NCBI GenBank assembly: GCA_002245135.1
Contig: NGBS01000583.1
Location: 62,001 to 126,000, forward strand
Direction of reading: 5' to 3'
Source: Proteromonas lacertae
Taxonomy: Eukaryota
DNA: 64,000 nucleotides
Position numbers and translations under genes: made by a program. Position 1 is the stretch's first letter; the number at the start of each line of letters is the position of its first letter. Positions 3,095 to 64,000 of the stretch are shown here, one piece after another. The notes under the pieces are model-generated. The model ran no database searches. It was not told the DNA's origin and worked only from the letters and a program-made list of their open reading frames with translations.

Positions 3095-3277
3095 TATTGA
3101 TTTTAATGGAATAAAACAAAGAAAAGAATGATTTTTGTGTTTCTTATACTTGTAACGGTTAAGTGTTTCTGTAAACTTAAAACTATTCATTAGTATTTCT
3201 ACATAAACTAAATACATTTTGTTATCATTATATATATAGCACTTTAACCTAAAACTAGTTATTTATAAATAATCTTC

Positions 3278-3487
3278 TTATCTATTATCACTATCATTCA
3301 ATCCATTACAAACATAATTTAATATATTGTTATGCAAAAAATTTCTGATTTAATATATCAACAATGAGTTATACTGAATATTCTTGTTATCGTTACTGTA
3401 TTCCCACAGCATAAGCCCAATAGTCTCTAGACTATTAGATTTAGGTTCTGCTGTTGAGAATTTCTTCAGCAATTCTCCTATGTCCAT
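3278..3487 (-). pseudogene. Truncated 5' duplicate of the SAAL1-like gene (59 codons, stops at TAA just past the repeat edge)
   Basis: Lies in repeat copy 2. ATG 3487, same 30-nt intron, ends GAT AAT AGA TAA at 3280-3278. Confidence 0.8.
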
Positions 3488-3559
3488 TAAAAATTAAAGA
3501 AATTAAATCCCAAATATTTATTCGTTTTTTTATGAGGTTTGAGAGTTTGTCAATAAAAA
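3281..3559. repeat. 279-bp direct repeat, copy 2
   Basis: Identical by eye to 1500-1778. Confidence 0.95.
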
Positions 3560-3784
3560 ATTAAATTAATTCTTTAGTTGTTTTTATTCCCTATGCTGTA
3601 AAGGTATATAATAATGAATTTGAGATTATAGTTGGTGAGTAAGTGTATTTAACAAAATATTTTAATATGAATAAATCAAAAATATTTTAATAAATTATTT
3701 ATTATGAAACTAAATATGCTATTGTAAAGTAGAATATATAATACATATATAAAATAATATTTATTATTTATTATTATTACTTAT

Positions 3785-6700
3785 TTAATAATATGTTGTT
3801 TCAGACCATCTATTTGGATTATTCTGTTGAACTGTATTATTATTATTATATTTCTTATTTTTATCATTATTATATCTATTATTTCTATTCCTATTCATAC
3901 TCATTGCAGAATTCATATTATTCCTATTATTTCTATTATCACGATTTGACATAGTCTTTCTATAAAACCTAGATTGTTCAAACAGCGAATTACCAAACCT
4001 ACTTTCATATAAAATTTCATTTGCTGAGACTAAATAATTCAAATTATAAGTTAATGAATAAGATAAAGACTGCAATTTGGATGGTTCTTTTCTGTGGAAT
4101 AACACTGTGTTTGTAGTTTGATCCCAAGATGCTAATAACATTCCATCCACCATCATTTTACTGATTATACTATGAATTGTATTAGAATTGAGACAAAACA
4201 ATTCTTTTAATCTTTCTAATGATAAGGAGTCATAATAACCACTACAATTCAATACATATGTCTGTAGAGCAGTATCTTTAATCCAATGTTCTAAATTACT
4301 CTTAAATTTATCTAATTCATTATATTTAAATATATTCCATATTTCTAATGATTGAATTGCATTATTTGCTTCAATCCAATCACCATCTCTTAAACTAACT
4401 GTAGCATACATGACATTATCTTTAGCAGTTTCAGCTGGACCTAAAAACAATCTCTTTTCATAATTCATTAAATGATTTGTAAAACATCGATAATGATCAT
4501 TTATTCCAACTATATTGTGGTTTGATATTGCTAAGGATGGGACTATTACTATCATACATGATATGAAATAACACACTTCTATTAAATCTAAATTTATATG
4601 TTGAATTGAGGGTAATAATCTTCTTTTCTCTTGTTTTATTTCATCTGCAGTTTTTTCACCATTTATTACTTTATAATTTATTCCTAAATAATTAAATAAA
4701 TATATAAATATAATAGATAGATAGATGTTATTAAATCCCTAAGACAAATGCCTCATTAACTTCATAAAGTTATGATTACAATTGAATGGATGTATAATCA
4801 TTCAGACTCGTCATCTTGTTCTTCATTGGGATAATAATATTAATAATAATTAGTAATATATAGACAAGATAAATACCTTGTGCTAATAATTCTTTTGCTT
4901 TCTGTTTATATCCTTTAGGGAATAATAAACCAATTAAACAATTCATACAGTTAATATGATCACCCATTCTAAATGCAGCTAATCCTAATTGAGTTAATGC
5001 TCTATTATATAACACCTAAATAAATAAAATATATTGATTTATATATTAAAATAATGTAAGACTTTTATACAACTATAAGAATGACTTTTTATAACATTGA
5101 AATAGAGAAAAGAAAGTATTTATTCATATTCGAACCTATATATATCAATATTTATATTAAAATATCAATAATAACTCAGTTCGAATTTATACACAACATA
5201 TTATATATATATACCAGTAAACTATATTCATCAGGAGTAGTAGGAGTAATTGCTGGAATAATGGATTGTAATTGAGTTAATAACAACAAATCTCGAGCTT
5301 TCACAAACTTATCATGTATTGAGTAATAGTATATTAAACATAATATACATCTCTGTTTACAATATTCACTACCATTTTGATTAATATAAGTAACTAAATC
5401 TTCTAATTCTTTCTCCCAATCATGGTTCTTTATATTTACATTATTTGGTTGTTTTCCCCAACTTGCTGGGTTGGTGATTTGTATATCAAAGTTATCAGGG
5501 ATAGTTGTATTGGAATTAGAAGCAGGATGGTATTGTAGTTTATCACCAAATATTTGATAGAGTGTATAATCCTTATTTTGTTCATCTGCTAAATTATTGT
5601 GTTTATAATATCTATTAAAATATAATTATAAATAAATATTTATATCAAGATTTTATATATATATAATTAAGAGTGAGATTGTATATTATTTCAGTTGAAC
5701 TATACTATTAAATTCAACATGTGTTGATTTAGATAGAAATTTTGACATCATTATATAATATATAGAGTAATAAATAATAAAGAAATGTATATAATATTAA
5801 TAAATCAGTTGAGCAATAAAAGCCACATAATATATTCAGAGCGAAAGACAACCATCCTTTATTAATACAACAATAGTATTAGAATATATAAGTATTAATA
5901 TTAATAATCAGTTGAGCAATAAAAGCCACATAATATATTCAGAGCGAAAGACAACCATCCTTTATTAATATTAACACAATGATTAGAAGTAGTAATAGTA
6001 TATATTATATATAATCAGATTTAATGTAAGTTTGACTTCATATATTAAAGTCAGAGATTGTTCACAACCATCATTTATATATAATAATAATAATAATAAT
6101 ATTAATAAAGAAATAGATTAATATATACCTTAATTCAACTATCAATAATGATAATTGTGATGTAATATCTGGTTTATTCAGTTTCTTATAATAATCAACA
6201 CCTTTATATAATGTTTCTATCAATGGTAATTCATCAGGTAATCTTATTAAATAATCATTACTACTGCTATCTATATTCTTTAGACTCTTATTATAATCAC
6301 CTGTTAATCTATCTAATATTAATGATGGCATTAGTGGAACTGGGATTATATTTAACTATACAATATATAGTAATATATATTAATACATTGTCTGGTATTT
6401 GTGCATTAAATTCATATGTCAATAACAATTCATAATTTTCATTCTTTAATAATATATCTAATAATGTTGATAATATTCTAATAGATCTTCTCCATAAGTG
6501 AATAGATAAATGAGAATCAGGATCTTTATGAAATTCAGTCTATTATTAATAATATATATATATAATATATACAATTGTTGTAATTAATCCCAATCCAGTC
6601 ATAATCTTGTAATAGTCTTCATATTTCTGTGATTCATTATATAACTGTGTTAATATCATTATTTGTTCTACTTTATTCACTTTCTTACCTCTATTCTCCA

Positions 6701-8133: not shown

Positions 8134-10416
8134 TTACACCCTTGATAATGCATATAAAAATTCATTTAACTCTTTAGGAACACCAATAGAAACAGGAATA
8201 TGTTGCCACATAAAATAGACAGATATTAACATCATCCATACTGCCACAATATGCAAGGCCTATTTAAATATATATATATATATATAAACGTAAAATACAT
8301 AACAATTGAAATTCATTAATGTGAATAACAACAAACATAGAGTAATCTCTGAAATAATAATATAATACTTTCTAATGAGAATAAATCTTTTAGATGTTTC
8401 AACTTTATCATTATTACTTGAGGTTTCTACCTTTTGTTGTGTAAAAGTCAATAAGAACTTATACTTCCAGTTTAAATAATAAAATGTTGTTAAACAAAAA
8501 TCAAGAACAAATGTTTGGATATACTTATACATATCTGAAGAATGATAAGTACCAGGTGGAGCACCAAAGAATCTTCTTACATCATAATAATATCCTAATT
8601 GTTGAGCCATAATACCAATCTTTGCCAATGCTACAATGAAAAATATTGAATGGTATCTTGTAACTTCATAGAGTAAATGAATGATTACCATCACTTGAAA
8701 TATAAACTGGATTAAACACATGAATGGAATTGAGTATGAAATAATATATTTAACATTTATTTCATGTATTAAAGACTCAGGAAAGAAAACTGTGTTAAAC
8801 TGATAAGCTAATATTGAAAATATCAATATCAATAAGGAAATATCTGGAAATTCACCTTGATCTTTTGGAATTACAGCTTTGACTACTTTGATTGTAAAAT
8901 AGAATGGAGATAATAATGAAATAGCTGTAAGGCCAAACAATATTGAAGCAACATAAGCACCTGAATATATTAAGATAAACTGAGCTGGATTAGGTAATTC
9001 TAAATTGAATCTGAATAAAACTTGAATACTATACATCATTATATAAAACATAAATATTCCTGTATCTTTTAACAATTGTAAATGATTTACTGGATTAATA
9101 ATATCAAATACATTAGAATCTGGTTTTACAAAGAATGTTAAAACACATAATAATAACATAAATACAGATGCAGCTGGTAAACGAGGACAATAATGAACAG
9201 TAAATAGTGTTTTATAATAGGAGAAAGTGATATTTACTTTTTCAAAATCTCTATAACCTCTAAGTAAATCATATTCTACTTGATTCTTTGGTATAATTGT
9301 ATGAACTAAATGATTATAAAATGCAGCAGTTCTTTCTTGAGGAGTTAAAAACGATCTTTTTGTTGCATTTGACATTAATGGTTGATTTGAATAAACATCC
9401 CACAACGTTTGAGTAAACAATTTTATCCATCTATTACAATAAACAACTTCATGATGATCTAAAGACATCAATAACCCATCTATATGTGATGTAGATAAAG
9501 TAAAACCAAATTCTGGAGAAACAAATGAATTAACCATCAAATCAGTTGGATATATAATCAAATCTCTCCATCCACCAACAATACCAAACACATTGAAAGA
9601 ATAATTTCCATTCTTTCTTAAGGATCTATAGGAATGAACTAAATAAGAATCCCATGAAACTGATGGTGATAAATGTGGAGATGATATTGTGATTAATGAT
9701 AGCACTTTATCAGTTTTCTATTGTTTATATATATATATGGATTAAGATGTATATATACACATTGTGATTGATATAATGACAAACGAGCAACTACACCACC
9801 CATCGAATGACCAATAATCAATATTTTTGTATCTTTATTGTAACTATTATAATACATATTAAATAATTAAAATACAATGATAAAATATTGTTAATAGCAT
9901 CACAAGCAAATTCTGCTTCCTCTTTCAATGAATTACCTGAATAAAAAGAACATTCTAAACCGAAATCTAAGGTATATAAATCAAAATAGGAGTTGTTTAA
10001 TTTGTGTTGTAAATCCAACAACTATTTAAATATTCAATTAAATAGAAAAATAATATTACCATTGTTCCAATATATTGAATATTTTGATATAATCCTCTAC
10101 TTCCAGGCATGAAGACAATTGGCTAAACTCCTTTGCTAATTGGATATGAGCGATCATAGTATCGATATAATGAATATTTATAATGCCATTTATTATAATT
10201 CTTACAAATTTCATTGGATTTAGTTTCGTTCACAGGAATTGAATCATAGATTGGAGATCTAATATCGTTAATTATATTATTGAATGTTTACGTTGGTAAT
10301 GGTGGACAGGATCCAACTGATGATATATTAATCAACATGAAGTAGTATCCTTGATATGCTGAATAACAGTATAAACATCCAATTACGAAAATCGAAGCTG
10401 TTACTAAATTAAACAT
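8134..10416 (-). CDS. PGAP1: GPI inositol-deacylase PGAP1/Bst1-like (in-frame TAG at 10125-10123)
   Basis: N-terminal TM, YKYSLYRY, PIVFMPGSRG, lipase motif IIGHSMGGVVAR, ITISSPH, GGWRDL, DHHEVVYC, multi-TM C-terminus; 5 short introns. Confidence 0.85.
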
Positions 10417-10749
10417 TAAAGTTTAAAATCAGTCGTGTTTATTCTTTCTTTTAATACTTATAATAATAACGTGTCTTTAAAAAATCAATTCATTTTTACA
10501 GGAAACATATATTCATCTCCCATATATATTCTCTAAACTAAAGAGAGAGTATCTCTCATTTCAACACTAACTTATACATCAATTACATTAATATGTCACA
10601 TAAAATTTAAATTTATATATTTTATTTATTCATATCTAATCATATTGATAGAGAAAAAAGTCAATACATTAAAATACAATTCTAATACACTAAAATACAT
10701 CAGAAAAAAATAGCTGTTATATTTTTTAATCTTCCGTTAATAACTTGAG

Positions 10750-12395
10750 ATGGAGAACACCTGTGCCAGTAATTCTACTAAAATCAATGAACTAAAACCT
10801 ATGTCAACAGAATACGCTGTATAATTATTCTTTTACAATCACTAGTCAAGATTATTATCACCTAAATATTATGGAGCTATAAGAACCTCACCAAAAAAGT
10901 GTCAGACACCAAAAGTTGGGTATGAAATTCTATCTATATCGTATATATAGCGAAAGTTGCGATAGATTTATACCGTGCAGATCTTCATCAGAATTAGAAT
11001 CAGCATTCACATTTGACGATTTTGCTCAATCATTTTCACAGTATTATTGTATTTTGTATAATCTCAAATAAGAAATGAATCTTCTACTAACACTACATCA
11101 AAGAATATAACAATTGACGTTGACTCTCCTTACTCATTAATGCTACAATCAGAATTATTAGGCATTGACTCACTTCCTTCAACTCCAATATCAAACACAA
11201 AGTCACACTCATCTGCTACAAATTCATCATATAATAGTCCTCAAACATCACCTAAAAAAATACTTCACTTTTCTCCCAAAACTCCAGAAAGAACAAAATC
11301 ATTTTTTTCTCCAATTAGTAACAATCATTTTATATCATCTCCGCTTGTACCAAATAGAAAAATTCCAACTATTCCATTCAAAATGTTAGATGCTCCTGGT
11401 TTAAAAGATGATTTTTACATCAATGTGTTAGATTGGTCAAAAAATAATATTATTAGTGTTGGACTAGAATCTACAGCATATTTATACAATGCAGTTAATA
11501 ATAATGTATAAATTACATATATATATCTTAAAATAGATAATAGAATTATCAGATTATGAAAATGATTATGTTTCATGTCTAAAATTCAACGGTGAAGGTA
11601 ATCTACTCACAATAGCCACTAATAATGGTAAAATACAAATATGGGATGTTGTTAATACTTCATTAATTAGAGAATATAAGAGTAATGGTTCAATAAATCA
11701 TCGAAGAGTAGGTACATGTAGTTGGTGTGGTGATTCTACGATAGCAACAGGTAGTAAAGATGGTATAATAACAATCAGAGATATACGATGTTCTACTGAT
11801 AATATACATTTATTATATGGACATAGTGATGAAGTGTGTGGTTTAAAATATAGTTATCCAACTCAAAATATCCAATTAGCATCAGGAGGTAATGATAATA
11901 CAGTGTGTATATGGGAACCTAACCATAGTTGTAGACCTATTCATATATTGAAGGATCATACTGCCAGCAATCAAAGCCTTAGACTGGTCACCGCATCAAA
12001 ATGGACTATTAGCTAGTGGAGGTGGTACTGCTGATAAAAAGATAAGATTTTGGAATACTTTTACTGGTAGTTGTTTGAATACAGTTGATAGTGGTAGTCA
12101 AGTATGTAATATATTATGGAGTCCTCATGTTAATGAGTTTATTACTAGTCATGGTTTTACTTATAATCAGTTGAATGTGTGGAAGTATCCCAGTTGTAGT
12201 ACAATTGGTACATTAACAGGGCATAAGTCAAGAGTGTTATTTTTGTCATTATCTCCAGATGGACAATCAGTTGTATCTGGTGCTGGAGATGAAACATTGA
12301 GATTTTGGACAGTATTTCCAGAGAATGTGTTAAAAAGCCAAAATAGACTAAAGAGTCAGAGGTTATTAATTGATAATTCATTGGATATTAGATAA
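10750..12395 (+). CDS. FZR1: APC/C activator Cdh1/Fizzy-related (WD40); +1 frameshift at 11964-11965 in this copy
   Basis: C-box DRFIPCR, Cdh1-type [28 protein letters not shown]40 repeats, [11 protein letters not shown]-terminal IR tail; 4 short introns. Confidence 0.9.
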
Positions 12396-12764
12396 TTATG
12401 TAAAATGTAGTTAAGTTATTTAATTAATTCTTCATATGTGTTTGTTGAATATTATTTTAAAATGTGTTAAAATAGAGATTGTATTGATAAATTTTTTGGG
12501 GGTTTATAACAAATAATATTCTACATATATGTACAGATGATTTTATCTTTTTTATAGTAATATAAATCAGAGATTATCTAATTTTATAATAAAAGGCTTA
12601 AATCGTCCATTTATTATTAAAAAGACGTTTTTATCTATTAAAAAATGACTAGTTCTCGCGATATATGTTTGTACATAATAAATAACCAAACATCAAAAAC
12701 TTATAATTATTATTATGAAAAATCACTACTCAAAAGAATCTTTTATTAGTAATTATTTGGAATA

Positions 12765-13109
12765 ATGTCTGAAACACGTAGTCCTAGTTTTGTAAGTGCC
12801 AATAGTTCTCAAAAACAGTTTGTAAGAAAAGTATTTCACAACCCTTGCCAGTATTGGTACTGTGGTTTATGTGCTTGTGTTACATCCATTTTTTTATTTT
12901 TTTATACCTTATTTGCATTAATATTCACTTCATTATGGTATTTCATCAAAGGTTTATGGAATTGCATAACTTGTAACTGTGATGAAAGTTTTTGTGGCGA
13001 TGAGTTTTTTGGTGAGTGCACAACATCTTGTGATGGTGGCTGTTCATATTTAGGTGAATGTTGTTGCGATTGTTTAGGTTGTGCAACATGCCATCCTAAC
13101 GATGATTGA
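12765..13109 (+). CDS. Small cysteine-rich membrane protein (114 aa), copy 1
   Basis: Intronless ORF with a central hydrophobic segment and Cys-rich acidic tail (GECCCDCLGC). Confidence 0.7.
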   Translation: MSETRSPSFVSANSSQKQFVRKVFHNPCQYWYCGLCACVTSIFLFFYTLFALIFTSLWYFIKGLWNCITCNCDESFCGDEFFGECTTSCDGGCSYLGECCCDCLGCATCHPNDD

Positions 13110-13707
13110 AGTAAATATAAAAAGTTATACATTGTAATGTTTTTATTAATTGTTAGAATGAAGAAACTATTTGTCATAAACACTAACACATATAACTGAA
13201 TGTATAAAAAAATAGGCTTGTTGTAGCTTTATTTTAGTTTTTTTATTTCTTAGTAATAAAAGTAAATGCATATATGTGTGATATACATATAATAAAGGCA
13301 TATATGTAAATAATAGTAAAATATCATTTAAAGCATTGATGTAATATTAAAATACTCCTATTGATGAATAATTATTATATTCATTGTTAATATATTAAAT
13401 TATATAGTATTTATTTCTTATGTTAAGTGTCGTACAAAAAAAATTAATGTGTACACTAACCTTTAATATTGTTCTTATGCAAAAAAAGATGTATATAACA
13501 ATGTTTGATGGTATGAAAATGAAAAGCAAAGTCAGTAACAAAAATGCAGTACGTCTTATTTAAAGCTTATATGAGATTAACAAACAACAAGCTGATGCTA
13601 ATTGTATTAATCCATATGTGAATAGTAGTTAGCATAATGAAATAATAAGAAAGATATAAAAGTAACGAAAATAAAATTCTTTAAAAGATTAGACTAATTA
13701 AAATACT

Positions 13708-16700
13708 ATGATATTGGTGTTTTTATTGTTGTCAGGAGGTATAATATTTTATTTTTAACATTTAGTTTTATGTAGTCCTTGTCTTAAGTTCAGCAATGAG
13801 ATCTATCTCATTTTAGGTAGTGAAGTTGAAGTTTGTTCTCCATTTAGAAATGGTCGATCATGCGCAGTTGATAGAAGTTTGCCAGAAGGTTTGACTCTTA
13901 AAGAAGACTGTAGAATTGTTGGATTTACCAAAATGGCCTGTAGAACAGAATATTTTACACTTAAATCATACAATAATGATAAAATTATGGAAAAGAAGTT
14001 ATTTTCATTAGGTGTTTATGAAAAACTCGAGAAATGTGGTTATTCTGATGGTTCAGGAGTATTTATGTTTCCAAAGGATATAACATCGTCATTATCACCT
14101 CCTAAATGCAATGTGGAAATAGAAAAATGTTATAGTTATGATAAATTACCCAAATTTGTAAAAGTGTATGAAGATGGTTCAATCCTTTTATCAAATCCAA
14201 TAAAATCAGAATTAGGTGTTAATGTGATTTGTTATAATAAAGTGAGTGAATATAAGATGAAGTTGAAAATAAACATTATTGAAGTATCTGAAAATGGTAA
14301 TGATAAAGTTCGCAATCTTCAAAGCAACATAATCCAAAATATTTGGGAATTTTCTAATAATAGACAACCAAATGATATATGGATGATTGGTTTCAGAGAT
14401 AAAAAGAATTGGATAGTAAGTAATTCGTTTCCTCCAAAATCAAAAACAACAAGATATTATCGAAACACATTTACCATTACTAATATAAAAGAAACTGGTC
14501 CTCCATTACTTAAAATAACCTTTAATGATGGAATTCTTATTTATGTAAATGGAAAAGAAATATATAGAAGAAATTTTTTTTCAGGTGGAATAGACACCAC
14601 AACTACATCAAGGAAAAAAGAAAAAAGAAATATGGAAATATCAATTCCTCTAACAGTAATTAAAGAGGGAATTAATTACATTGGAATAGAAGTTCATTCA
14701 TATTTATCCAATCCATTGAATCAAGTTGATTCTCTTTCTTGTACAATAACATTAAGTAATCCAATTACAACTACTCCAACTCAAATATCTACAATTGATA
14801 CAGTCACTCAATATTATCAATCTGCTTCTGGAAAAGAAGTAAAAGAAGTAAAAGATATGAATAACATTTTTTCAATTGGTAGTGGTTATATCGAATATTA
14901 TTTAACTTCATTAGTAGACTCCAATAAAGAATTTGATTGGTTTCCATTCAATATTACTTATTCATTTAATAATAATAAAGCCTTTTATTTCAATCAATTT
15001 AGTATAAGTGGTTGTTCTGATGATGAAGACTATCATCCTAAACATATTAGAATATATGGTTCAACAGATAGTGATGGTATAGAGTGGGAATTACTGTATG
15101 AAAATGAAAATTTAGGGTTGACTGGTAAAAAATGCACAACTATATTATCCAATTCATTACCATCTGATAAATCTTACGAAAGATATAAATTGGAAATAAT
15201 TTCAATTAATGATTTTCCTACTATCACTTCTGCCTATATTAAATTTAAATTATTTGTAGTAAATGTTGAATCATTACCAATGTGTAAAAGTGATTCTTTT
15301 GGATTTTCATCAGTATATGCTGGAGGAACATCTATAGTAGAATGTGGATCAGGATTTATGAAAAGAAAATGTTTATATGCTAGTGTTACTAACACAGCCA
15401 AATGGTCAGATGATATTGATAAGTCAAAATGCTATAATGAAAATGTTTATGTTTCAACCTATCCAAATATAACTAAAACCTATGAATTTGATAAAGAAAT
15501 ATCCTCAATCACACCAAAATCACAATATGTGAGTATTAGTGGAAAAATACTAAAGGTAAATAGTAATATAGAAACAGTTCAAAGATTTGAAGTGATATTG
15601 AGTGATTTAACAGAATATGATGTATATGTAAGTGCTGTAAGAGATGTTGGTAAATGTAGTTATGGAGTTGATAGTATTCGAATTTATCCAATTGAAATAG
15701 ATCTAGAATTGCTATGTTATCATAAACCATCTTATATATCAGTTTATAATCTTCCTACTGGTTTAAATGTAGATAAAAATGGTAGAATATATGGAATGAT
15801 AAGCGATCCAACTGAAAAAGAGGAATATACAACAGTAATTACATATATAATAGATAAAAAATATGAATTAGAGATAAAATGGAATAGAAAAAAAGTAGAA
15901 ATGAGTTGGGGATTAGAATTTGTAAATTTTGCAGAATCTGGCCAAGATGGAATGGATGATAATGGTTACAACTTTCATAACAGTGAATTAAAAGATATTT
16001 GGTCTAAATTTGAAAATGGAAAATATAAAATAGCAACAACAGAAGCATTATATACTACTAATGTTAAAATATCGGATTCAAAAGGTGAATGTCTTAAGTA
16101 TTTATGGAAGACTTGTCAAAATGGTATAGCCAGAATGAGAGGATATGTAAAAATTGATGAAGATGGAGAGTATACATTTTATGGAAAATCTGATAGACAA
16201 AAATTTGCCTTAAAGAATTACGAAGACGAATTATATAATACAAATGGTTTTTTTGAAGAAGGAAGCTATAAAGTTACATTAAAAAAAGGATATTATGCAA
16301 TTGGATATTTATCATGGTATGGTAGTGGATCTAGTGAATTTCAAGCATACCTTCAAAAAACAGGAGGTAATAAAGAATTATTGGATGATAGAATATTCAG
16401 GGGTGGGTTTGTTATTTCTCATTTATCATATAATGTTTTATTTGTTGAGTTAAAAAAGTATGATGATATATTTCTAAAACCAACTTTCAATGGAATTCCG
16501 TCAGAATGGGAAATAAGTCCAGAAATTAAAGGACTGTCAATCAAACCTGATGGAACAATAGAAGGATATACTTATGTCTATAGTAGTGACTATAAAATAG
16601 TGGTAGTAAAATCTGTTAGTAAAATAGATATATGTGAAATTTCTACAGAATTTCAACTTCATCTTTTTGATAAATACAGTATTAATCAAAATGGTTTAAA

Positions 16701-18240
16701 AGTTAAATATTATTATTTTGATGCAATTGATGTAGATAATACAATTAATATCTCTACACTTGATAATAAACATTTTAGATTAGAGAGATTTGAAGAAAAT
16801 ATATATCACGAAAAGAATGATAATTTATGGAATGATTTACCAGAAGAATTGAGTTATTCATTTATAGCTCATTACAGAGGATATTTTAATAATAAACTTT
16901 CAACTAAAAAAAATATTACAATCTCTCTAGAATGTCATGATTATTGTAGATTGAATATTGAAGATAAGTATATAGAGTGTAAAGGATATGGTTATCACAA
17001 AAAATCTGTTGAAATGAATCTAGATAATAGTTTATATGATTTAGAAATAATATATGCAAAAGGAAATGAAGATAAAACAAAATTACTAAAAATTTATTAT
17101 TCTATAGATGATTCTGAAGGAAAAGAAATTCCTGAATCATTATATTTGTTTAACGCAGAATATCCAGTGTTATATAATCCAATTAAGACTCATTACTATA
17201 AAGATGTATTAATCTTAATTCAATCTCCTATCAAATCTAAATCATTTAGTGAAAATATAGCCAATGTAAAATATTCAATTAGTCCTTCACTTCCTCCTGG
17301 AATGAAATTAAATGAAAATGATGGATCAATTGAAGGAATAAGTGAAATAATTGATGAAGATAGAAATTATACAATAAGAATTGATTTTAGGAATAACAAA
17401 CATTTTTATTCTTCATTTTCATTTTCAGTATTACCTAAAATTGAACCAATAATTGAATATCCAATTAATAATATATCCATAAAAGCAGGAGAGAATATTG
17501 AACTTACACCTTCTAACATGAAATGTGAATATATAAATGCTGCTGGTTTACCAGCTGGTATAAATATAGATAAAGATGGAAAAGTTTATGGTATTAGCAA
17601 ATATAGTTTTGATAAAGATGTGGATATGGATTGTTTTACATATAAAAAGAAAAGTGTATCTATTCACATAACAATAATATCTGATGAAACACTACCCCCT
17701 ACCACTATAATACCAACAACAGAAACACCTACGTCTGCTAAGCCAACTATAAAAATGGTTGAATTGTTCTTCTTTATTCACATCAATATTACTACATTAA
17801 CAGCAAATGAAATAAATATAATTGAAGAATCTTTAAAAGCAATATTAGAAAAACTAAACATTGATATGTCAATTACTAAAGTTAAGATTGAAATGATGAA
17901 AAGAAGGATGAGAATATTATCTGAGTATAAGTTAAGAGTCATTATAGAAACACCAGAAACAGAATCTACCAATGTAACATCAACTATAAAATATTTGGCT
18001 GAAAATGAAGGTGAATTACAGAATGAGATAAAGAATAGAGTAGATAAGGATTCTGACTTATATAATTCAAAAATAGAAATTGAGATAGAAAAGAATGATA
18101 CATCACCTCCACCTGAGAATGAAGAAGAAAGTAACAATAATGTAGTGATGATAATAATTATAGTTGTAGCTGTCGTTGTAGTATTAGTATGTTGTGCTAT
18201 TACATGTAGAATTATCAATAGGAAAAATGTGAAAAGATAA
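13708..18240 (+). CDS. Large type I cell-surface protein (about 1500 aa): He_PIG Ig-like repeats, galactose-binding-like and PA14-like domains, PT linker, SEA-like juxtamembrane domain; copy 1
   Basis: ATG 13708 plus a 27-nt intron gives signal peptide MILVFLLLSGVLCS. Repeats of LPxGLx(I/L)xxxGxIxG; PA14-like F(I)AHYRGY...ECHDYCRL; C-terminal TM (VVMIIIIVVAVVVVLVCC) and basic tail. Confidence 0.85.
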
Positions 18241-18393
18241 TATTGTTATAAATAGAAATTGATATCTTATTATTATTATTATTATTATGATAAATTGTAT
18301 TTAAGGTAATCATTCTTCATTAAATGGCTATATTATGGTACATTTATTTTTGAAGAAGAATATTAAAAAATCGAAAACCCTCTAGAAACCCCA

Positions 18394-18420
18394 TGCTCAA
18401 TCGATTGAGCACATGCTCAA
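18394..18420. repeat. Triple short inverted repeat TGCTCAA/TTGAGCA/TGCTCAA in the palindrome spacer
   Basis: Perfect 18-bp palindrome TGCTCAATCGATTGAGCA (18394-18411) overlapping TTGAGCA-CA-TGCTCAA. Confidence 0.9.
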
Positions 18421-18726
18421 ATGTAATCTACCCTTTTTTAATTTCCTTCAATTATAATGACTCTAATGAAATTAAGTACATTTATCAGCAAAACAAAATT
18501 TGTACTAAAATTTTAGTTTAACACAATATTCGTTTATAAAATATGACTTACACAATTTACTATGTAAAATTTTAAAGGCAAAACTTGTACTTTTATTTTT
18601 TTAATATTCTTCTTCAAAAATAAATGTACCATAATATAGCCATTTAATGAAGAATGATTACCTTAAATACAATTTATCATAATAATAATAATAATAATAA
18701 GATATCAATTTCTATTTATAACAATA

Positions 18727-21700
18727 TTATCTTTTCACATTTTTCCTATTGATAATTCTACATGTAATAGCACAACATACTAATACTACAACGACAGCTA
18801 CAACTATAATTATTATCATCACTACATTATTGTTACTTTCTTCTTCATTCTCAGGTGGAGGTGATGTATCATTCTTTTCTATCTCAATTTCTATTTTTGA
18901 ATTATATAAGTCAGAATCCTTATCTACTCTATTCTTTATCTCATTCTGTAATTCACCTTCATTTTCAGCCAAATATTTTATAGTTGATGTTACATTGGTA
19001 GATTCTGTTTCTGGTGTTTCTATAATGACTCTTAACTTATACTCAGATAATATTCTCATCCTTCTTTTCATCATTTCAATCTTAACTTTAGTAATTGACA
19101 TATCAATGTTTAGTTTTTCTAATATTGCTTTTAAAGATTCTTCAATTATATTTATTTCATTTGCTGTTAATGTAGTAATATTGATGTGAATAAAGAAGAA
19201 CAATTCAACCATTTTTATAGTTGGCTTAGCAGACGTAGGTGTTTCTGTTGTTGGTATTATAGTGGTAGGGGGTAGTGTTTCATCAGATATTATTGTTATG
19301 TGAATAGATACACTTTTCTTTTTATATGTAAAACAATCCATATCCACATCTTTATCAAAACTATATTTGCTAATACCATAAACTTTTCCATCTTTATCTA
19401 TATTTATACCAGCTGGTAAACCAGCAGCATTTATATATTCACATTTCATGTTAGAAGGTGTAAGTTCAATATTCTCTCCTGCTTTTATGGATATATTATT
19501 AATTGGATATTCAATTATTGGTTCAATTTTAGGTAATACTGAAAATGAAAATGAAGAATAAAAATGTTTGTTATTCCTAAAATCAATTCTTATTGTATAA
19601 TTTCTATCTTCATCAATTATTTCACTTATTCCTTCAATTGATCCATCATTTTCATTTAATTTCATTCCAGGAGGAAGTGAAGGACTAATTGAATATTTTA
19701 CATTGGCTATATTTTCACTAAATGATTTAGATTTGATAGGAGATTGAATTAAGATTAATACATCTTTATAGTAATGAGTCTTAATTGGATTATATAACAC
19801 TGGATATTCTGCGTTAAACAAATATAATGATTCAGGAATTTCTTTTCCTTCAGAATCATCTATAGAATAATAAATTTTTAGTAATTTTGTTTTATCTTCA
19901 TTTCCTTTTGCATATATTATTTCTAAATCATATAAACTATTATCTAGATTCATTTCAACAGATTTTTTGTGATAACCATATCCTTTACACTCTATATACT
20001 TATCTTCAATATTCAATCTACAATAATCATGACATTCTAGAGAGATTGTAATATTTTTTTTAGTTGAAAGTTTATTATTAAAATATCCTCTGTAATGAGC
20101 TATAAATGAATAACTCAATTCTTCTGGTAAATCATTCCATAAATTATCATTCTTTTCGTGATATATATTTTCTTCAAATCTCTCTAATCTAAAATGTTTA
20201 TTATCAAGTGTAGAGATATTAATTGTATTATCTACATCAATTGCATCAAAATAATAATATTTAACTTTTAAACCATTTTGATTAATACTGTATTTATCAA
20301 AAAGATGAAGTTGAAATTCTGTAGAAATTTCACATATATCTATTTTACTAACAGATTTTACTACCACTATTTTATAGTCACTACTATAGACATAAGTATA
20401 TCCTTCTATTGTTCCATCAGGTTTGATTGACAGTCCTTTAATTTCTGGACTTATTTCCCATTCTGACGGAATTCCATTGAAAGTTGGTTTTAGAAATATA
20501 TCATCATACTTTTTTAACTCAACAAATAAAACATTATATGATAAATGAGAAATAACAAACCCACCCCTGAATATTCTATCATCCAATAATTCTTTATTAC
20601 CTCCTGTTTTTTGAAGGTATGCTTGAAATTCACTAGATCCACTACCATACCATGATAAATATCCAATTGCATAATATCCTTTTTTTAATGTAACTTTATA
20701 GCTTCCTTCTTCAAAAAAACCATTTGTATTATATAATTCGTCTTCGTAATTCTTTAAGGCAAATTTTTGTCTATCAGATTTTCCATAAAATGTATACTCT
20801 CCATCTTCATCAATTTTTACATATCCTCTCATTCTGGCTATACCATTTTGACAAGTCTTCCATAAATACTTAAGACATTCACCTTTTGAATCCGATATTT
20901 TAACATTAGTAGTATATAATGCTTCTGTTGTTGCTATTTTATATTTTCCATTTTCAAATTTAGACCAAATATCTTTTAATTCACTGTTATGAAAGTTGTA
21001 ACCATTATCATCCATTCCATCTTGGCCAGATTCTGCAAAATTTACAAATTCTAATCCCCAACTCATTTCTACTTTTTTTCTATTCCATTTTATCTCTAAT
21101 TCATATTTTTTATCTATTATATATGTAATTACTGTTGTATATTCCTCTTTTTCAGTTGGATCGCTTATCATTCCATATATTCTACCATTTTTATCTACAT
21201 TTAAACCAGTAGGAAGATTATAAACTGATATATAAGATGGTTTATGATAACATAGCAATTCTAGATCTATTTCAATTGGATAAATTCGAATACTATCAAC
21301 TCCATAACTACATTTACCAACATCTCTTACAGCACTTACATATACATCATATTCTGTTAAATCACTCAATATCACTTCAAATCTTTGAACTGTTTCTATA
21401 TTACTATTTACCTTTAGTATTTTTCCACTAATACTCACATATTGTGATTTTGGTGTGATTGAGGATATTTCTTTATCAAATTCATAGGTTTTAGTTATAT
21501 TTGGATAGGTTGAAACATAAACATTTTCATTATAGCATTTTGACTTATCAATATCATCTGACCATTTGGCTGTGTTAGTAACACTAGCATATAAACATTT
21601 TCTTTTCATAAATCCTGATCCACATTCTACTATAGATGTTCCTCCAGCATATACTGATGAAAATCCAAAAGAATCACTTTTACACATTGGTAATGATTCA

Positions 21701-23259
21701 ACATTTACTACAAATAATTTAAATTTAATATAGGCAGAAGTGATAGTAGGAAAATCATTAATTGAAATTATTTCCAATTTATATCTTTCGTAAGATTTAT
21801 CAGATGGTAATGAATTGGATAATATAGTTGTGCATTTTTTACCAGTCAACCCTAAATTTTCATTTTCATACAGTAATTCCCACTCTATACCATCACTATC
21901 TGTTGAACCATATATTCTAATATGTTTAGGATGATAGTCTTCATCATCAGAACAACCACTTATACTAAATTGATTGAAATAAAAGGCTTTATTATTATTA
22001 AATGAATAAGTAATATTGAATGGAAACCAATCAAATTCTTTATTGGAGTCTACTAATGAAGTTAAATAATATTCGATATAACCACTACCAATTGAAAAAA
22101 TGTTATTCATATCTTTTACTTCTTTTACTTCTTTTCCAGAAGCAGATTGATAATATTGAGTGACTGTATCAATTGTAGATATTTGAGTTGGAGTAGTTGT
22201 AATTGGATTACTTAATGTTATTGTACAAGAAAGAGAATCAACTTGATTCAATGGATTGGATAAATATGAATGAACTTCTATTCCAATGTAATTAATTCCC
22301 TCTTTAATTACTGTTAGAGGAATTGATATTTCCATATTTCTTTTTTCTTTTTTCCTTGATGTAGTTGTGGTGTCTATTCCACCTGAAAAAAAATTTCTTC
22401 TATATATTTCTTTTCCATTTACATAAATAAGAATTCCATCATTAAAGGTTATTTTAAGTAATGGAGGACCAGTTTCTTTTATATTAGTAATGGTAAATGT
22501 GTTTCGATAATATCTTGTTGTTTTTGATTTTGGAGGAAACGAATTACTTACTATCCAATTCTTTTTATCTCTGAAACCAATCATCCATATATCATTTGGT
22601 TGTCTATTATTAGAAAATTCCCAAATATTTTGGATTATGTTGCTTTGAAGATTGCGAACTTTATCATTACCATTTTCAGATACTTCAATAATGTTTATTT
22701 TCAACTTCATCTTATATTCACTCACTTTATTATAACAAATCACATTAACACCTAATTCTGATTTTATTGGATTTGATAAAAGGATTGAACCATCTTCATA
22801 CACTTTTACAAATTTGGGTAATTTATCATAACTATAACATTTTTCTATTTCCACATTGCATTTAGGAGGTGATAATGACGATGTTATATCCTTTGGAAAC
22901 ATAAATACTCCTGAACCATCAGAATAACCACATTTCTCGAGTTTTTCATAAACACCTAATGAAAATAACTTCTTTTCCATAATTTTATCATTATTGTATG
23001 ATTTAAGTGTAAAATATTCTGTTCTACAGGCCATTTTGGTAAATCCAACAATTCTACAGTCTTCTTTAAGAGTCAAACCTTCTGGCAAACTTCTATCAAC
23101 TGCGCATGATCGACCATTTCTAAATGGAGAACAAACTTCAACTTCACTACCTAAAATGAGATAGATCTCATTGCTGAACTTAAGACAAGGACTACATAAA
23201 ACTAAATGTTAAAAATAAAATATTATACCTCCTGACAACAATAAAAACACCAATATCAT
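18727..23259 (-). CDS. Large type I cell-surface Ig/PA14 protein, copy 2
   Basis: Same 1453-aa ORF as copy 1, with the mirrored signal-peptide exon. Confidence 0.85.
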
Positions 23260-23857
23260 AGTATTTTAATTAGTCTAATCTTTTAAAGAATTTTATTTTC
23301 GTTACTTTTATATCTTTCTTATTATTTCATTATGCTAACTACTATTCACATATGGATTAATACAATTAGCATCAGCTTGTTGTTTGTTAATCTCATATAA
23401 GCTTTAAATAAGACGTACTGCATTTTTGTTACTGACTTTGCTTTTCATTTTCATACCATCAAACATTGTTATATACATCTTTTTTTTCATAAGAACAATA
23501 TTAAAGGTTAGTGTACACATTAATTTTTTTTGTACGACACTTAACATAAGAAATAAATACTATATAATTTAATATATTAACAATGAATATAATAATTATT
23601 CATCAATAGGAGTATTTTAATATTACATCAATGCTTTAAATGATATTTTACTATTATTTACATATATGCCTTTATTATATGTATATCACACATATATGCA
23701 TTTACTTTTATTACTAAGAAATAAAAAAACTAAAATAAAGCTACAACAAGCCTATTTTTTTATACATTCAGTTATATGTGTTAGTGTTTATGACAAATAG
23801 TTTCTTCATTCTAACAATTAATAAAAACATTACAATGTATAACTTTTTATATTTACT

Positions 23858-24202
23858 TCAATCATCGTTAGGATGGCATGTTGCACAACCTAAACAATCG
23901 CAACAACATTCACCTAAATATGAACAGCCACCATCACAAGATGTTGTGCACTCACCAAAAAACTCATCGCCACAAAAACTTTCATCACAGTTACAAGTTA
24001 TGCAATTCCATAAACCTTTGATGAAATACCATAATGAAGTGAATATTAATGCAAATAAGGTATAAAAAAATAAAAAAATGGATGTAACACAAGCACATAA
24101 ACCACAGTACCAATACTGGCAAGGGTTGTGAAATACTTTTCTTACAAACTGTTTTTGAGAACTATTGGCACTTACAAAACTAGGACTACGTGTTTCAGAC
24201 AT
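23858..24202 (-). CDS. Small cysteine-rich membrane protein, copy 2
   Basis: Identical to 12765-13109. Confidence 0.7.
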   Translation of the reverse strand: MSETRSPSFVSANSSQKQFVRKVFHNPCQYWYCGLCACVTSIFLFFYTLFALIFTSLWYFIKGLWNCITCNCDESFCGDEFFGECTTSCDGGCSYLGECCCDCLGCATCHPNDD

Positions 24203-24571
24203 TATTCCAAATAATTACTAATAAAAGATTCTTTTGAGTAGTGATTTTTCATAATAATAATTATAAGTTTTTGATGTTTGGTTATTTATTATGTACAAAC
24301 ATATATCGCGAGAACTAGTCATTTTTTAATAGATAAAAACGTCTTTTTAATAATAAATGGACGATTTAAGCCTTTTATTATAAAATTAGATAATCTCTGA
24401 TTTATATTACTATAAAAAAGATAAAATCATCTGTACATATATGTAGAATATTATTTGTTATAAACCCCCAAAAAATTTATCAATACAATCTCTATTTTAA
24501 CACATTTTAAAATAATATTCAACAAACACATATGAAGAATTAATTAAATAACTTAACTACATTTTACATAA

Positions 24572-25250
24572 TTATCTAATATCCAATGAATTATCAATTA
24601 ATAACCTCTGACTCTTTAGTCTATTTTGGCTTTTTAACACATTCTCTGGAAATACTGTCCAAAATCTCAATGTTTCATCTCCAGCACCAGATACAACTGA
24701 TTGTCCATCTGGAGATAATGACAAAAATAACACTCTTGACTTATGCCCTGTTAATGTACCAATTGTACTACAACTGGGATACTTCCACACATTCAACTGA
24801 TTATAAGTAAAACCATGACTAGTAATAAACTCATTAACATGAGGACTCCATAATATATTACATACTTGACTACCACTATCAACTGTATTCAAACAACTAC
24901 CAGTAAAAGTATTCCAAAATCTTATCTTTTTATCAGCAGTACCACCTCCACTAGCTAATAGTCCATTTTGATGCGGTGACCAGTCTAAGGCTTTGATTGC
25001 TGCAGTATGATCCTTCAATATATGAATAGGTCTACAACTATGGTTAGGTTCCCATATACACACTGTATTATCATTACCTCCTGATGCTAATTGGATATTT
25101 TGAGTTGGATAACTATATTTTAAACCACACACTTCATCACTATGTCCATATAATAAATGTATATTATCAGTAGAACATCGTATATCTCTGATTGTTATTA
25201 TACCATCTTTACTACCTGTTGCTATCGTAGAATCACTACACCAACTACAT
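24572..25250 (-). pseudogene. FZR1: 5'-truncated Cdh1/Fzr1 duplicate (C-terminal WD40 repeats plus IR tail, frame intact)
   Basis: Begins at the duplication breakpoint with an in-frame TAA immediately upstream and no ATG. Lacks the C-box and first WD repeats. Confidence 0.85.
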
Positions 25251-25495
25251 TAAATGCTATTAAATTATTATTTTAGAAATAACTCTATGCTTGTTGCGAT
25301 TTACATTAATGAATTTAAATTGTTATATTACTCTCCTCATCACGTATTTTCATTAAATTAAAAAAATAAAAAATGTTTCTTTAGTGATCAAGCCAAGCAT
25401 TTTATAATATCAAAGGTCTAAATAAAATTCTTTGATTATCAACAGAATTACTATTCTTTACTTTTCTTTTTTTAATTCATTATTCATAAATTAAA

Positions 25496-27444
25496 ATGCC
25501 ATTTGGAGATTATGAACGTATTGATTTGTTAGGAAAAGGTTCGTATGGAGAAGTATATTATATTTTATAAGATCATTAGGTATTCTTAGTCAGACATAAG
25601 GTTGAAAGAATATTTTATGCTATCAAAATCGTGGATATAAATTATATGCAAGAAGAAGAAAAAAAAAGATGTTATAAAGAGATTGACATAATGCAAAATT
25701 TGGTTCACCCAAATGTAGTTCAATTAATAGTATATTAGTTAGTATTATCATATATTAGGAAAGTTACCTTAATAAACGAAATTCAAAGCTTCAAATAGTA
25801 ATGACTTACTGTGATGGAACTGATTTAGGAAAATTGATTGATAAGAATATAAAATCAAAAAAACACTTTAAAGAATTTAGTGTGATGAATTATTTTGTGC
25901 AAATTCTCTTAGGTTTAAATTACATTCACAGCAAACGTGTAATTCATAGAGATATAAAGCCAGATAATATATTCCTTTTAGGTAATGGAAGATTAGTAAT
26001 AGGAGATTTAGGTGTTTCAAAACTATTAGGTACAAGATCAAATGCACAAACAACAACAGGAACACCATATTTCATGGCACCAGAATTATATAAACAGGAT
26101 ATTTATGATTATAAAGTAGATATTTGGTCATTAGGAGTGTTATTGTATTATATGGTTACTTTTCATTATCCTTTTGATTGTAAGACTTTACTTCAACTAA
26201 ATCAAAATATTATAACTGGTAAATATAAACCAATAACTGATTTTACTAAAGAATATTCAAAAGATATGGAGAAGTTAATTAGCGAATTACTTACAGTCGA
26301 TCCTAAACACAGAGCTACATCATTCAGATTATTATCAAATTCATATATACAGCAACATTTAGTTACTCTATTTCATGAATTATTAAACCAACCAAATAAC
26401 AAGATGACTGATGGAACAATTAACATTAAAAATGCTTTAAGAGATTATGCCAAGCAAAATGGATGTAAAGTGAGTATTGAAGATAAAATAGATATTCCAG
26501 TATTATATAATGTATATGTTAAACAACTTGAAGAAATTGGTATATTAGATGACATAGTCAATTCAATATGGAACAAAAAACAGACAACAAGTGAAAAGGA
26601 TATAAAGTTACATCGACTAGATATAGAGGAACAAAGAAAATGTGTTATAAAACAGTCATTAGCAAAAGTAAAAATACAAAAAGAAGTGAAACAAAAGAAA
26701 ATCATCGAAAGAAGGATTAAGAAAAACAATAACTATAAAAATATTGATAAGAATATTAAAGAAGAATTTTTAAAGATTTACACTGATTTGAACATTCAAC
26801 CAGAAAAATGTTTTACTCCAACAATGTTATTAGATTCTGGTATTTCCTTTATCGATATACATGCTCCACCTATAAACAATAAATGTGAAGATGAAATTTT
26901 AAATGATGGCACTAATGATATTGACAGCAATAATACACAAGAGTTAAAAGATGATGGATGGGTTATACCAAAAACTGATGATTTTGAAAATATTGATGAA
27001 TTGAATGCAAAAGAAAAAGAACTTGAAGAGGAGTTATTTGTTACTTGCAAAACAATAAGTGAATTAAGGAAAGAAGTAAAACCTAATTGTGTATTAGCTG
27101 TAATTCCAGACAGTGATGATAGCGAAAGCGATGATAGTGAAAGTGAAGGTGATAATGTTGAAGAAAATTATAAAGATAATTCCATCAAAAAGAAATGTAA
27201 TTTATTAAAGAATGAAATTAAAGCTGAAATTGGAGATAAATATTGTACAGTATATAATTACCTCAATGTAATGACAAGAAAAAATGAAGGCTTCGTTTCA
27301 GAACTAGATAATCCTTCAACAATAAGAGAATTGAAGTTACTTTTTCAATCAGACAATGATAGTTATGCATTAAAATATGGAAAGAAAATCTGTGATATTA
27401 TTTTTATGGAAAAGCTATTAGATTATAGCTCTAACTTAAATTAA
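25496..27444 (+). CDS. NIMA-related (NEK family) Ser/Thr kinase; 2 introns
   Basis: MPFGDYERIDLLGKGSYGE|V, YAIK, HPNVV, HRDIKPDNIFL, DLG, GTPYFMAPE; coiled-coil/acidic C-terminus. Confidence 0.9.
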
Positions 27445-49750: not shown

Positions 49751-50944
49751 TTAATCTAACATACTTTCAACATCAATATCACCAAACTCATCTTCATTAT
49801 TTGAATGAAGTGATCTATTACTAGCACGGTTTGGATCTTTTACAGAAGCAAGACTAGGAGCAGCATCAGGAGCTGGCGAGGAAGCTGGTTGACGACCTGG
49901 ACCAGGTGGTGGTGGTCTTCTTGGCATAGCTGATCCATCATCACCTCCTCCTCTTCCATTATTTGGATTGATTTGTGGAGGTGGTGCTCTTCCTCCTTGT
50001 GCAAACGTAGTTTGACCGTTATTAACTTGATTTCTACGCTCTAATTCTGCATATTGAGCAGCGAATACATCTGAATTTTCACCTAAATCTTTACATAAAG
50101 CTACCAAGTATCTTAAACATTCAATATTTTCTGGATATTGTTTATGAATATCTTTATACATCTGTAATGCTTTCTTTAAGTTACCTAAACGTCTATAACA
50201 ACTAGTAACCATCAATTTCCATTTCACTTCATCTGGTTGAACTTCAGTAGCTCTTTCAAAGAAGGAAATTGCTTCTTCATACATTTCAGATCTGACAAAC
50301 CATAATCCAAGCCAAGATATAACATCTAAATTAACTGGATAGAATTTATAACTTTCTTTATGATAATGTAATGCTTGAGTATCATCATCTTCTTGACTAA
50401 ATAATTGACCTAATCTTGCAGTAATACCTGGATCAGTTGGAACTTTAGCTAATAACAAATTATAATATTTTATAGCTTCTTTTGGTCGATGTAATATTTC
50501 ATAAATTGTACCTATTTGATAGAATACTTCTGGATTACCTGGAGTTACTTGCAATAACTTCTCAAATGCTTGTAATGCTTCTTCCTGTGGTCCTACACGT
50601 TTTGCTACCAATCCTAAATTATAGATTGCTTCACTACAATCAGCTTCAACACCAATAGCTTCTAAATACATCTCTTTGGATTTATCATATTCTTCTTTAA
50701 TATAATGGCAATTACCTTTGTTTACTAAAGCTCTAGCATTATATCTATCTTTCTTTACAGCTTGAGTAGCATATTCATCAGCTTGTTTGTAATCTTGTTG
50801 TAAGAAATACATGAATGATAAGTTATTAGAGACTTGTGATCCTAATTGTTGATCTCTCTTTTCTGGTCCTCTTAATACTTTGGTAGCTTCATCAATCTTC
50901 TTTTGATGCATCTATTTTAATAATAATAATATTATTATTTATTA

Positions 50945-50982
<38 letters not shown>

Positions 50983-56145: not shown

Positions 56146-57097
56146 AATACTGTTATATTTATATTAATTTTATTAATTATAAGTTTCAATACTTCACAAA
56201 ATGAAATGAATTAAATATGAGGTTTGGTCAGATCAAGTTCTTAGTTTCTTTTTTTCTTTTTTACCTCTTAACAATGATTTTTATCAATTATTTTATATCC
56301 AACATCCACATTATGCTTATTATGGTTTAGTAATTTAATAGAAACAGGATCATTATGAAAATGCATTGATTTCGTTGTTCTTATATTAAAGTAATATATA
56401 AACATGCTAATATAATTATCCAATGACAAACATTAATATTATCTAAGTTATTATAAATAGAGCTTTTTATTGATTATTAAACAGACTTTCACCCCCAATT
56501 TATTGAATGTTAATGCATTATGCATATAATTATAGTATGACAAATAAAAAGATCAAAATTTTACAGATTGAAGCAGTTATTCTTGAAAGACTTTAGCTGT
56601 TATGTCTACCAGTTCTCTATAACAATGATGTAGTATATATTAACATTATATAATTATATATCACAAAAGCTGTTTGGTTAGTGTATTAATGTAAATTTGA
56701 AGGTGATAATGATTTATGAAGTGGTTATACAATTTTTGATAGTAATATAACATATATAGATGAAAATTGTTAATCAGATTTATGAGTATCAATACATCAC
56801 CTAATTTTCAGAATTATTTAATATAGAGAATAAATTGAATAAAATAATCGTGAATATAGTTGTTTCTATGATATACATGCTCAATGGATAGTTAATTTAG
56901 GAGAAATTAATGAAATGAAAATATTGAAACGACTATATGAATAATACATTTAATACAAGTTAATACAATTATCATATGTCTTCATTATCATTTGCTTATA
57001 TAGAAGAAACATTGAAATATAATTTACCGAATGTGATTGTATAGATGTATTATATATGAAATAGATAAAAGAGAAAATAGAAAAAAGTGTATATGAA

Positions 57098-63780: not shown

Positions 63781-64000
63781 TTTGTAATATGTATATATTT
63801 TACTAACTATATGAACTCTCTAATTATTATAAAATCATATAATTAGTTTTTTAAATCAAGCCTCAAACTATTTAAGATTTTTCATTTCAAAAAATATTTG
63901 ATGTTAATGTTGAGATTATGTATAAATTTAGTTTTATATTTCTTTGGTGAATATTAAATTATGTATTTACAAAGTTAATAAGGAAATTATACAACACTGA

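Follow-up and report, generated by a model that had tools for sequence, protein, structure and literature searches.

Several systems are known in which neighboring gene copies are inverted relative to one another and remain nearly identical in sequence. Palindromes of the human Y chromosome keep more than 99.9% identity between their arms by gene conversion, with tracts of several kb (PMC3723533). In the gut protist Giardia, VSP gene pairs are often disposed tail-to-tail, as described for 5 of 7 pairs in G. muris (PMC7641422) and for 13 of 20 in G. lamblia (10.1101/2022.03.07.483299). Segmental duplication of blocks of several genes, as at the locus examined here, has been reported in Blastocystis, a related gut stramenopile (PMC5608401, PMC12129017); unlike the arms presented below, those blocks are not described in these reports as inverted, adjacent or homogenized, and neither "palindrom" nor "inverted" occurs in the main text of the second (PMC12129017). 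No nuclear palindrome of Blastocystis or its relatives was found in the literature covered (articles proper, few of them from subscription journals).

The window, i.e., the whole 64-kb stretch of DNA analyzed, contains a palindrome of 13.5 kb (Table 1). Self-BLAST of the window returned the two arms (6655 and 6654 bp) as one inverted match of 6655 columns and 99.955% identity, reproducing the arms, the spacer and the three differences named by an earlier, sequence-only reading. These are exactly G/A at 11729, an extra C of arm 1 at 11964/5 and C/A at 13480 (arm 1/arm 2). An inverted duplication with two identical, intact surface-protein genes is supported in the assembly, and the stop codons of these genes end at 18240 and 18727 with 486 bp between them, as had been read. 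The arms end abruptly at the spacer: no erosion was seen at their inner ends, a search of the spacer for a decayed inner arm found none, and its on-axis complementarity (33 of 113 positions) was not above chance. Residual +1 errors are present in the assembly.

Table 1. Palindrome, genes and relic in the window.
Feature	Position	Strand	Basis or remark
PGAP1-like gene, 5' end approximate	8134..10340	-	PF07819, E 1.4e-8; relatives at 90%
Relic source, within conserved coding exon of PGAP1-like gene	8299..8377	-	
Single-copy segment, 3.34 kb	8378..11715	.	presumably lost from mirror copy
Full-length Cdh1/Fizzy-related gene, GT-AG introns of 27-31 nt	10750..12395	+	frameshifted in assembly
Arm 1, original copy, running on into full-length Cdh1 gene	11716..18370	+	self-BLAST
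Cys-rich ORF, 114 aa, 17 Cys, one hydrophobic segment	12765..13109	+	
Predicted type-I surface protein (Ig gene), 1501 aa after 27-nt intron 13739-13765	13708..18240	+	
Spacer, unique, 226 bp	18371..18596	.	
Perfect 18-bp palindrome within spacer	18394..18411	.	
Arm 2, inserted mirror copy	18597..25250	-	self-BLAST
Ig gene, second copy, identical	18727..23259	-	
Cys-rich ORF, second copy, identical	23858..24202	-	
Headless Cdh1 3' copy, 225 codons, in frame, lacking 5' half	24572..25250	-	
Relic: decayed inverted PGAP1 exon piece, 79 bp	25248..25326	+	overlaps arm end by 3 bp (ATG)
Protein-kinase gene, unique, past outer junction; presumably NEK-like	25496..27444	+	Pfam Pkinase

Between arms, not one letter of the Ig gene or the Cys-rich ORF differs. 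The Ig protein is predicted to comprise a hydrophobic N-terminus, a He_PIG Ig-like domain, a Thr-rich stretch, a transmembrane segment near residues 1465-1495 and a short basic tail. In the label Ig/PA14 given to it earlier the Ig-like part passes the Pfam cut-off (He_PIG, 40.2 bits against 24) and the PA14 part falls below it (20.8 against 24). Atlas similarities of 0.85-0.87 to He_PIG clusters serve as leads only, as does the best Atlas match (0.78) of the Cys-rich ORF, for which no Pfam family was found. A search with the Ig protein gave 2 matches among 7990 scored candidates; its best named match is a Blastocystis protein (26%), and the best 150 of 523 representatives include no close orthologue, similarity being at the domain level only (25-41%). 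The sequence-only reading also proposed a gain in surface-protein dosage, a dsRNA hairpin from read-through with possible silencing, and flipping of the spacer. The TGTTTGTT motif has no exact occurrence within 130 bp past the Ig stop (3 mismatches at best), which says little because it is exact at just 1 of 10 gene ends checked. The Cdh1/Fizzy-related assignment was borne out by a search restricted to longer proteins, where the 120 matches listed of 3683 include generic Fizzy-related proteins at 46-61%, which do not inform on lineage. Among metagenome contigs, a 24-nt Cdh1 pattern had 0 exact matches and a PGAP1 pattern 129 matches, of which 0 were confirmed as PGAP1 relatives.

The outer flanks, previously considered unrelated, are not so. 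The 79 bp at the outer end of arm 2 are an inverted copy of an exon piece of the PGAP1-like gene situated 3.3 kb outside arm 1; of the 79 positions 66 match and 13 are substituted, with 0 indels and one stop codon (divergence about 13-16%; blastn E 2e-15). A 69-bp core matches at 60 of 69 positions (E 7e-18), whereas the first 10 bp match poorly and therefore leave the ATG microhomology at the arm end uncertain. No control 79-mer out of 300 drawn from unique DNA scored above 53 matches, and the four other arm-end 79-mers scored 40-45; the local score of 106 compares with maxima of 77 in 100 shuffles and 85 in 93 real windows. Apart from the arms and the relic, the 64-kb self-BLAST has no non-microsatellite inverted match longer than about 60 bp; the relic begins at most 3 bp from the outer end of arm 2, in mirror orientation and order (chance adjacency about 3e-4), and no additional relic was found in the search past 25326.

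With pS 0.31 and pN 0.13 the ratio pN/pS of the relic is 0.44, which, although the numbers are small, fits a dead copy compared with a live one; third positions take 7 of the 13 substitutions, which is not significant (p 0.10). Of a cluster of nine 90%-identical PGAP1 relatives, all 8 members that cover the stretch agree with the gene copy there (26 of 26 residues); the relic departs from them at 6, one being a stop, so that the amino-acid changes belong to the relic branch. A scar of a staggered-break inversion was rejected by reasoning, PGAP1 being continuous on either side of the source piece.

These features bear on a single, very recent template switch, as proposed in the sequence-only reading, here with several jumps (spacer end to 18370, 11716 to 8377, and 8299 back to the kinase promoter), in which the 79-bp piece would have been hypermutated during synthesis or taken from a diverged paralogue elsewhere. 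Short microhomologies are possible at the three junctions (a T-run where the spacer ends, ATG where the arm does) and are typical of template switching. This event is nonetheless very improbable, as mixed-spectrum substitutions at 13-16% in 79 bp, far in excess of junction mutagenesis, would adjoin 6.6 kb of near error-free copying, and a donor that is a paralogue should have an intact reading frame, yet the relic has a stop.

Relic and arms differ in divergence (13/79 against 3/6655, Fisher p 1.5e-23), and the relic-to-arm ratio is estimated at about 600-fold. The duplication had been read as very recent, which is not supported: the relic is diverged by 13-16%, and at the rate of the relic, 143-204 differences would be expected in the 1097 bp of non-coding arm DNA, where 1 is observed, and 88-126 in the 680 bp of the headless Cdh1 piece, where 2 are observed. 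Selection cannot account for the identity of the arms, since non-coding DNA and the dead Cdh1 piece are also nearly identical. Arms at 99.95% identity beside a relic about 16% diverged suggest that the duplication is old and that the arms have been copy-corrected. It is therefore probable, judging from these sequence comparisons, that an old inverted duplication has had its arms homogenized by gene conversion between them, a process mentioned only in passing in the sequence-only reading and adopted here as the main explanation. This dating relies on one 79-bp piece and assumes that relic and arms share an origin, which, like conversion itself, the polarity of its tracts and any selective value of two surface-gene copies, we infer; the identity of the arms and the presence, position, orientation and decay of the relic are observed. 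The relic dates its own isolation and so sets a minimum age for the duplication.

The sequence of events might have been as follows. A segment spanning at least 8299-18370 (about 10 kb), with part of PGAP1, Cdh1, the Cys-rich gene and the Ig gene, would have been duplicated in inverted orientation at a distance of 226 bp past its own end; the inverted PGAP1 piece outside arm 2 indicates that the mirror was likely once at least 10 kb long and lost 3.3 kb. The loss of the counterpart of 8378-11715, which holds the intergenic region from which PGAP1 and Cdh1 diverge, together with the 5' part of each, may have taken place at birth or later, possibly via the 3-bp ATG microhomology; both housekeeping duplicates would thereby have lost their 5' ends while both membrane-protein duplicates stayed whole. 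The outer 79 bp, too short and isolated by 3.3 kb of non-homology, would have escaped correction and decayed as a pseudogene, and the long, close arms would have kept recombining non-reciprocally, with tracts probably favoring the center. The outermost 27% of the arm contains all three arm differences (p 0.019 in a post hoc test; p 0.07 for the two substitutions alone), and one of them lies 13 bp inside the edge (p about 0.01); all three are possible consensus errors, in which case the argument from this gradient would go.

A second account concedes the old duplication and makes the present arm young. An ancient copy would have been deleted down to the 79-bp relic, perhaps with a short inner stub, and a break at the relic site would recently have been repaired with 6.65 kb copied from the neighboring gene block and joined up again at the relic, so that the arms would be alike through youth and not through continual correction. 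It explains why relic and arm adjoin, why the inner boundary is sharp and how an unstable structure survived; in yeast, identical inverted repeats at close spacing are unstable (PMC10164571), which counts against long survival of the palindrome. It also accounts for the absent GC shift: no GC enrichment of the arms was found (0.266 against 0.262 and 0.265 in the flanks), GC of non-coding arm DNA is 0.196 against 0.218 outside, and GC3 of the Ig gene is 0.137 against 0.125-0.225 across 15 other ORFs. As it requires a second event at the same site and in the same orientation, and age alone would not be expected to bias differences outward, this account is considered rather unlikely.

An assembly artefact, either a fold-back or amplification chimera in the contig or the homogenization of moderately diverged arms during consensus building or polishing, is quite improbable. 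The residual +1 errors speak for it, as do the palindromic chimeras known to follow whole-genome amplification (10.1101/173872). Two chimeric joins would, however, have to be placed exactly between spacer and relic, and a simple fold-back is made less likely by the decayed, indel-free relic at the outer junction. The relic is unlike raw long-read error: 13 substitutions with 0 indels would have a probability between 1e-3 and 2e-7 if the share of substitutions is assumed to be between 0.6 and 0.3, respectively, and missed bases are among the nanopore errors seen on inverted duplicates (PMC7229812). Arms as diverged as the relic would presumably not be merged by an assembler, and the identical inverted VSP pairs of Giardia, once doubted as artefacts, were later confirmed (10.1101/2022.03.07.483299).

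The extra C at 11964/5 frameshifts the full-length Cdh1 of the window, while the headless copy in arm 2 stays in frame; this C is probably a consensus error. Introns that could skip it were considered and rejected, as all 8 formal GT-AG candidates have an exon-like composition and would delete conserved WD residues. Were the C real, the palindrome could serve as a genetic switch that controls Cdh1, a regulator of the cell cycle; this reading is most improbable. Full-length Cdh1 would be frameshifted 249 bp inside arm 1 and arm 2 would store an in-frame 3' half; an exchange within the outer 249 bp, by crossover or conversion, would invert the 13-kb interior or replace the C, the two surface-protein genes would supply the homology that drives recombination, and APC/C-Cdh1 would be toggled on and off in a gut protist.

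If the old, conversion-maintained duplication is real, the range of gene palindromes kept by conversion comes to include gut stramenopiles, with a case that lacks GC bias and whose spacer is unusually short for a perfect inverted repeat of long standing. Identity near 100% between duplicated blocks in such genomes would then not imply recency, and the stranded exon piece would act as an internal clock from which the ratio of conversion to mutation can be estimated in one genome. The gain is modest because arm-to-arm conversion is already well known.

Like the Giardia VSP pairs, the locus comprises two identical surface-protein genes inverted tail-to-tail in a gut protist. VSPs are CXXC-rich with a CRGK-type tail, whereas the protein encoded here is a He_PIG type-I membrane protein with another tail and no VSP Pfam family; the arms, unlike the Giardia pairs, also hold the Cys-rich gene and half of Cdh1, and the spacer measures 226 bp against 2025 bp in one G. 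muris pair (PMC7641422). No link of the palindrome to antigenic variation emerged.

With the palindromes on sex chromosomes of mammals (human Y P6, PMC3723533; mouse X, 10.1101/800185) the locus shares gene-bearing arms above 99.9% identity and a unique spacer. It differs from them in having arms of only 6.65 kb, shorter than the 10 kb applied to palindromes of mammals (10.1101/800185), a spacer of just 226 bp and nothing hinting at a sex chromosome. GC-biased conversion, reported for human P6 (PMC3723533), is frequent but not obligatory, and no GC signal is seen here. As in the mammalian cases, the structure appears older than the identity of its arms implies (PMC3723533; 10.1101/800185), its age being drawn from an internal relic and not, as there, from orthologues.

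Self-BLAST of the window returned a single long inverted match (arm 1 against arm 2, 6655 columns, 99.955% identity), interrupted by a 226-bp spacer. Of the three differing sites, two are mismatches (11729, G/A; 13480, C/A) and one is an additional C (11964/5); coordinates and difference counts agree with the sequence-only reading. The inner arm boundaries are sharp and no residual symmetry about the axis was seen in the spacer (33 of 113 positions match). Two short palindromes within the spacer, the first overlapping a 9-bp direct repeat near its left end, represent a possible fragile site or element end.

The window has 26% GC and GT-AG introns of 27–43 nt. Three genes recur in both arms: a Fizzy-related/Cdh1 gene, represented by its 3' half; a Cys-rich ORF of 114 aa, in which one segment is hydrophobic; and a gene for a 1501-aa predicted type-I membrane protein (hydrophobic N-terminus, He_PIG Ig-like domain, C-terminal TM segment). 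The copies of the Cys-rich ORF are identical, as are those of the Ig gene, bearing out the earlier proposal of two identical surface-protein genes; the PA14 label proposed for the Ig protein is dropped, the match falling below the Pfam cut-off. Its top named match comes from Blastocystis (26% across 19% of the query), and no close relative was found in protein collections, whereas the PGAP1-like protein has relatives at 90% identity. The Ig protein may be fast-evolving, lineage-specific or simply missing from collections.

Features of the window
Feature	Position	Strand	Remarks
Direct repeat, 306 bp	1494-1797; 3274-3577		97.7%, differences at edges
Tandem repeat	5787-6018		~105 bp, 88% identity (self-BLAST)
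PGAP1-like gene	8134-10340	-	
Relic source	8299-8377		
Cdh1, full-length	10750-12395	+	runs into arm 1
Arm 1	11716-18370		
Cys-rich ORF	12765-13109; 23858-24202	+; -	
Ig gene	13708-18240; 18727-23259	+; -	
Spacer	18371-18596		
18-bp perfect palindrome	18394-18411		with repeat, 18392-18420
14-bp palindrome	18504-18517		
Arm 2	18597-25250		inverted copy
Headless Cdh1	24572-25250	-	3' piece
Relic	25248-25326		
HECT-ligase ORFs	27607 to ~39190		apparent very large gene
Second frameshift	37619-37622	-	+1
IFT88 gene	49751-52275	-	E 3e-98 to PDB 8bd7_A
Long ORFs	53542-56163; 61726-63819	-; +	

The outer flanks, formerly taken as unrelated, include a relic touching the outer end of arm 2, an inverted copy of part of a PGAP1-like coding exon 3.3 kb beyond arm 1. 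Relic and source align gap-free with 66 matches in 79 positions (core 60/69), whereas no count above 53 was seen among 300 control 79-mers, and 79-bp segments taken at the remaining arm ends or past the relic gave 40–45. The 64 kb hold no second dispersed inverted match of this length, and the probability of the relic falling at an arm end by chance is ~3e-4. It is oriented and ordered as in a longer mirror from which the counterpart of 8378-11715 is missing. Relic and arm 2 share an ATG overlap, although the relic's first 10 bp are poorly matched. Ten of its 26 codons differ from the gene (4 silent, 5 missense, 1 stop; pS 0.31, pN 0.13). Within a cluster of nine PGAP1 relatives at ~90% identity, all eight covering this stretch equal the window's gene at 26/26 residues, and in a second cluster, at 54%, the five members depart from gene and relic alike and have none of the changes seen in the relic. 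The amino-acid changes are thus the relic's own, and it is a decayed pseudogene piece. An assembly artefact or chimera is improbable, as it would require two joins falling exactly between spacer and relic, and 13 substitutions with no indels are unlike raw long-read error (compare passages of PMC7229812).

At the relic's rate, 143–204 differences would be expected in 1097 bp of non-coding arm DNA and 88–126 in the headless Cdh1 piece; one and two were found, respectively. Since purifying selection cannot hold such sites, the arms are either much younger than the relic or continually corrected. A recent repair that re-copied the gene block beside an old scar agrees with all sequence facts but is rather unlikely; one origin followed by correction is the most economical account because the relic is the sole match of its kind and lies at the arm end. 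The palindrome is probably real, old and maintained by conversion, and the "very recent" duplication first proposed is not favoured. A longer mirror would once have included the counterpart of 8378-11715 and then lost it; the relic would time its own isolation, giving a minimum age only. All three differences lie in the outer 27% of the arm (p 0.019, post hoc), one of them at 13 bp from the arm's edge, a pattern predicted if conversion tracts rarely reach heterology; this argument is lost if the differences are sequencing errors. Counting against conversion are the sharp inner boundaries, the lack of any GC lift seen in the arms, unlike human P6 (passages of PMC3723533), and the fragility of closely spaced identical inverted repeats in yeast (PMC10164571).

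The extra C shifts the frame of the full-length Cdh1 inside its WD40 repeats, and homologues align through the arm 2 copy in one frame. A second frameshift, in single-copy coding DNA of the apparent HECT-ligase gene and judged against a paralogous domain at ~41000, is probably a consensus error. A coarse check of 10 ORF junctions showed an AT-rich joining intron at five, no short intron at two and exon-like candidates only at three (the two frameshifts and one further junction). On these grounds the extra C is likely a residual consensus error; that it is real, making Cdh1 switchable by recombination within the outermost 249 bp, is very improbable.

The proposed deletion would have truncated both housekeeping duplicates at their 5' ends in a single event, sparing both membrane-protein genes, a pattern that would fit putative selection favouring a higher dose of surface protein and disfavouring surplus Cdh1. 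A hairpin RNA would require transcription to continue more than 356 nt beyond the stop codon. The Blastocystis transcript-end motif (passages of PMC5608401) is exact after only one of 10 gene ends checked in the window and so does not allow the ends of transcripts to be predicted.

Elsewhere, the IFT88 gene contrasts with the loss of nearly all flagellar genes reported for Blastocystis (passages of PMC12129017). Taken with the Blastocystis match of the Ig protein, it hints that the lineage may be Blastocystis or a relative that has kept flagella. The 306-bp repeats, a near-identical local duplication, flank an NADH:flavin oxidoreductase gene (PF00724) and seemingly include a neighbouring gene's 5' end. 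The two long ORFs, paralogue-like, contain repeated Cys-pair zinc-finger-like motifs with no Pfam match.

Literature searches, limited to openly accessible papers, turned up no nuclear palindrome of this type in this group of protists. Conversion-maintained palindromes are a known process and kind, of which this is probably a new example for the group: it would work like mammalian sex-chromosome palindromes and resembles in arrangement the identical tail-to-tail VSP pairs of Giardia, although it is not a VSP pair.
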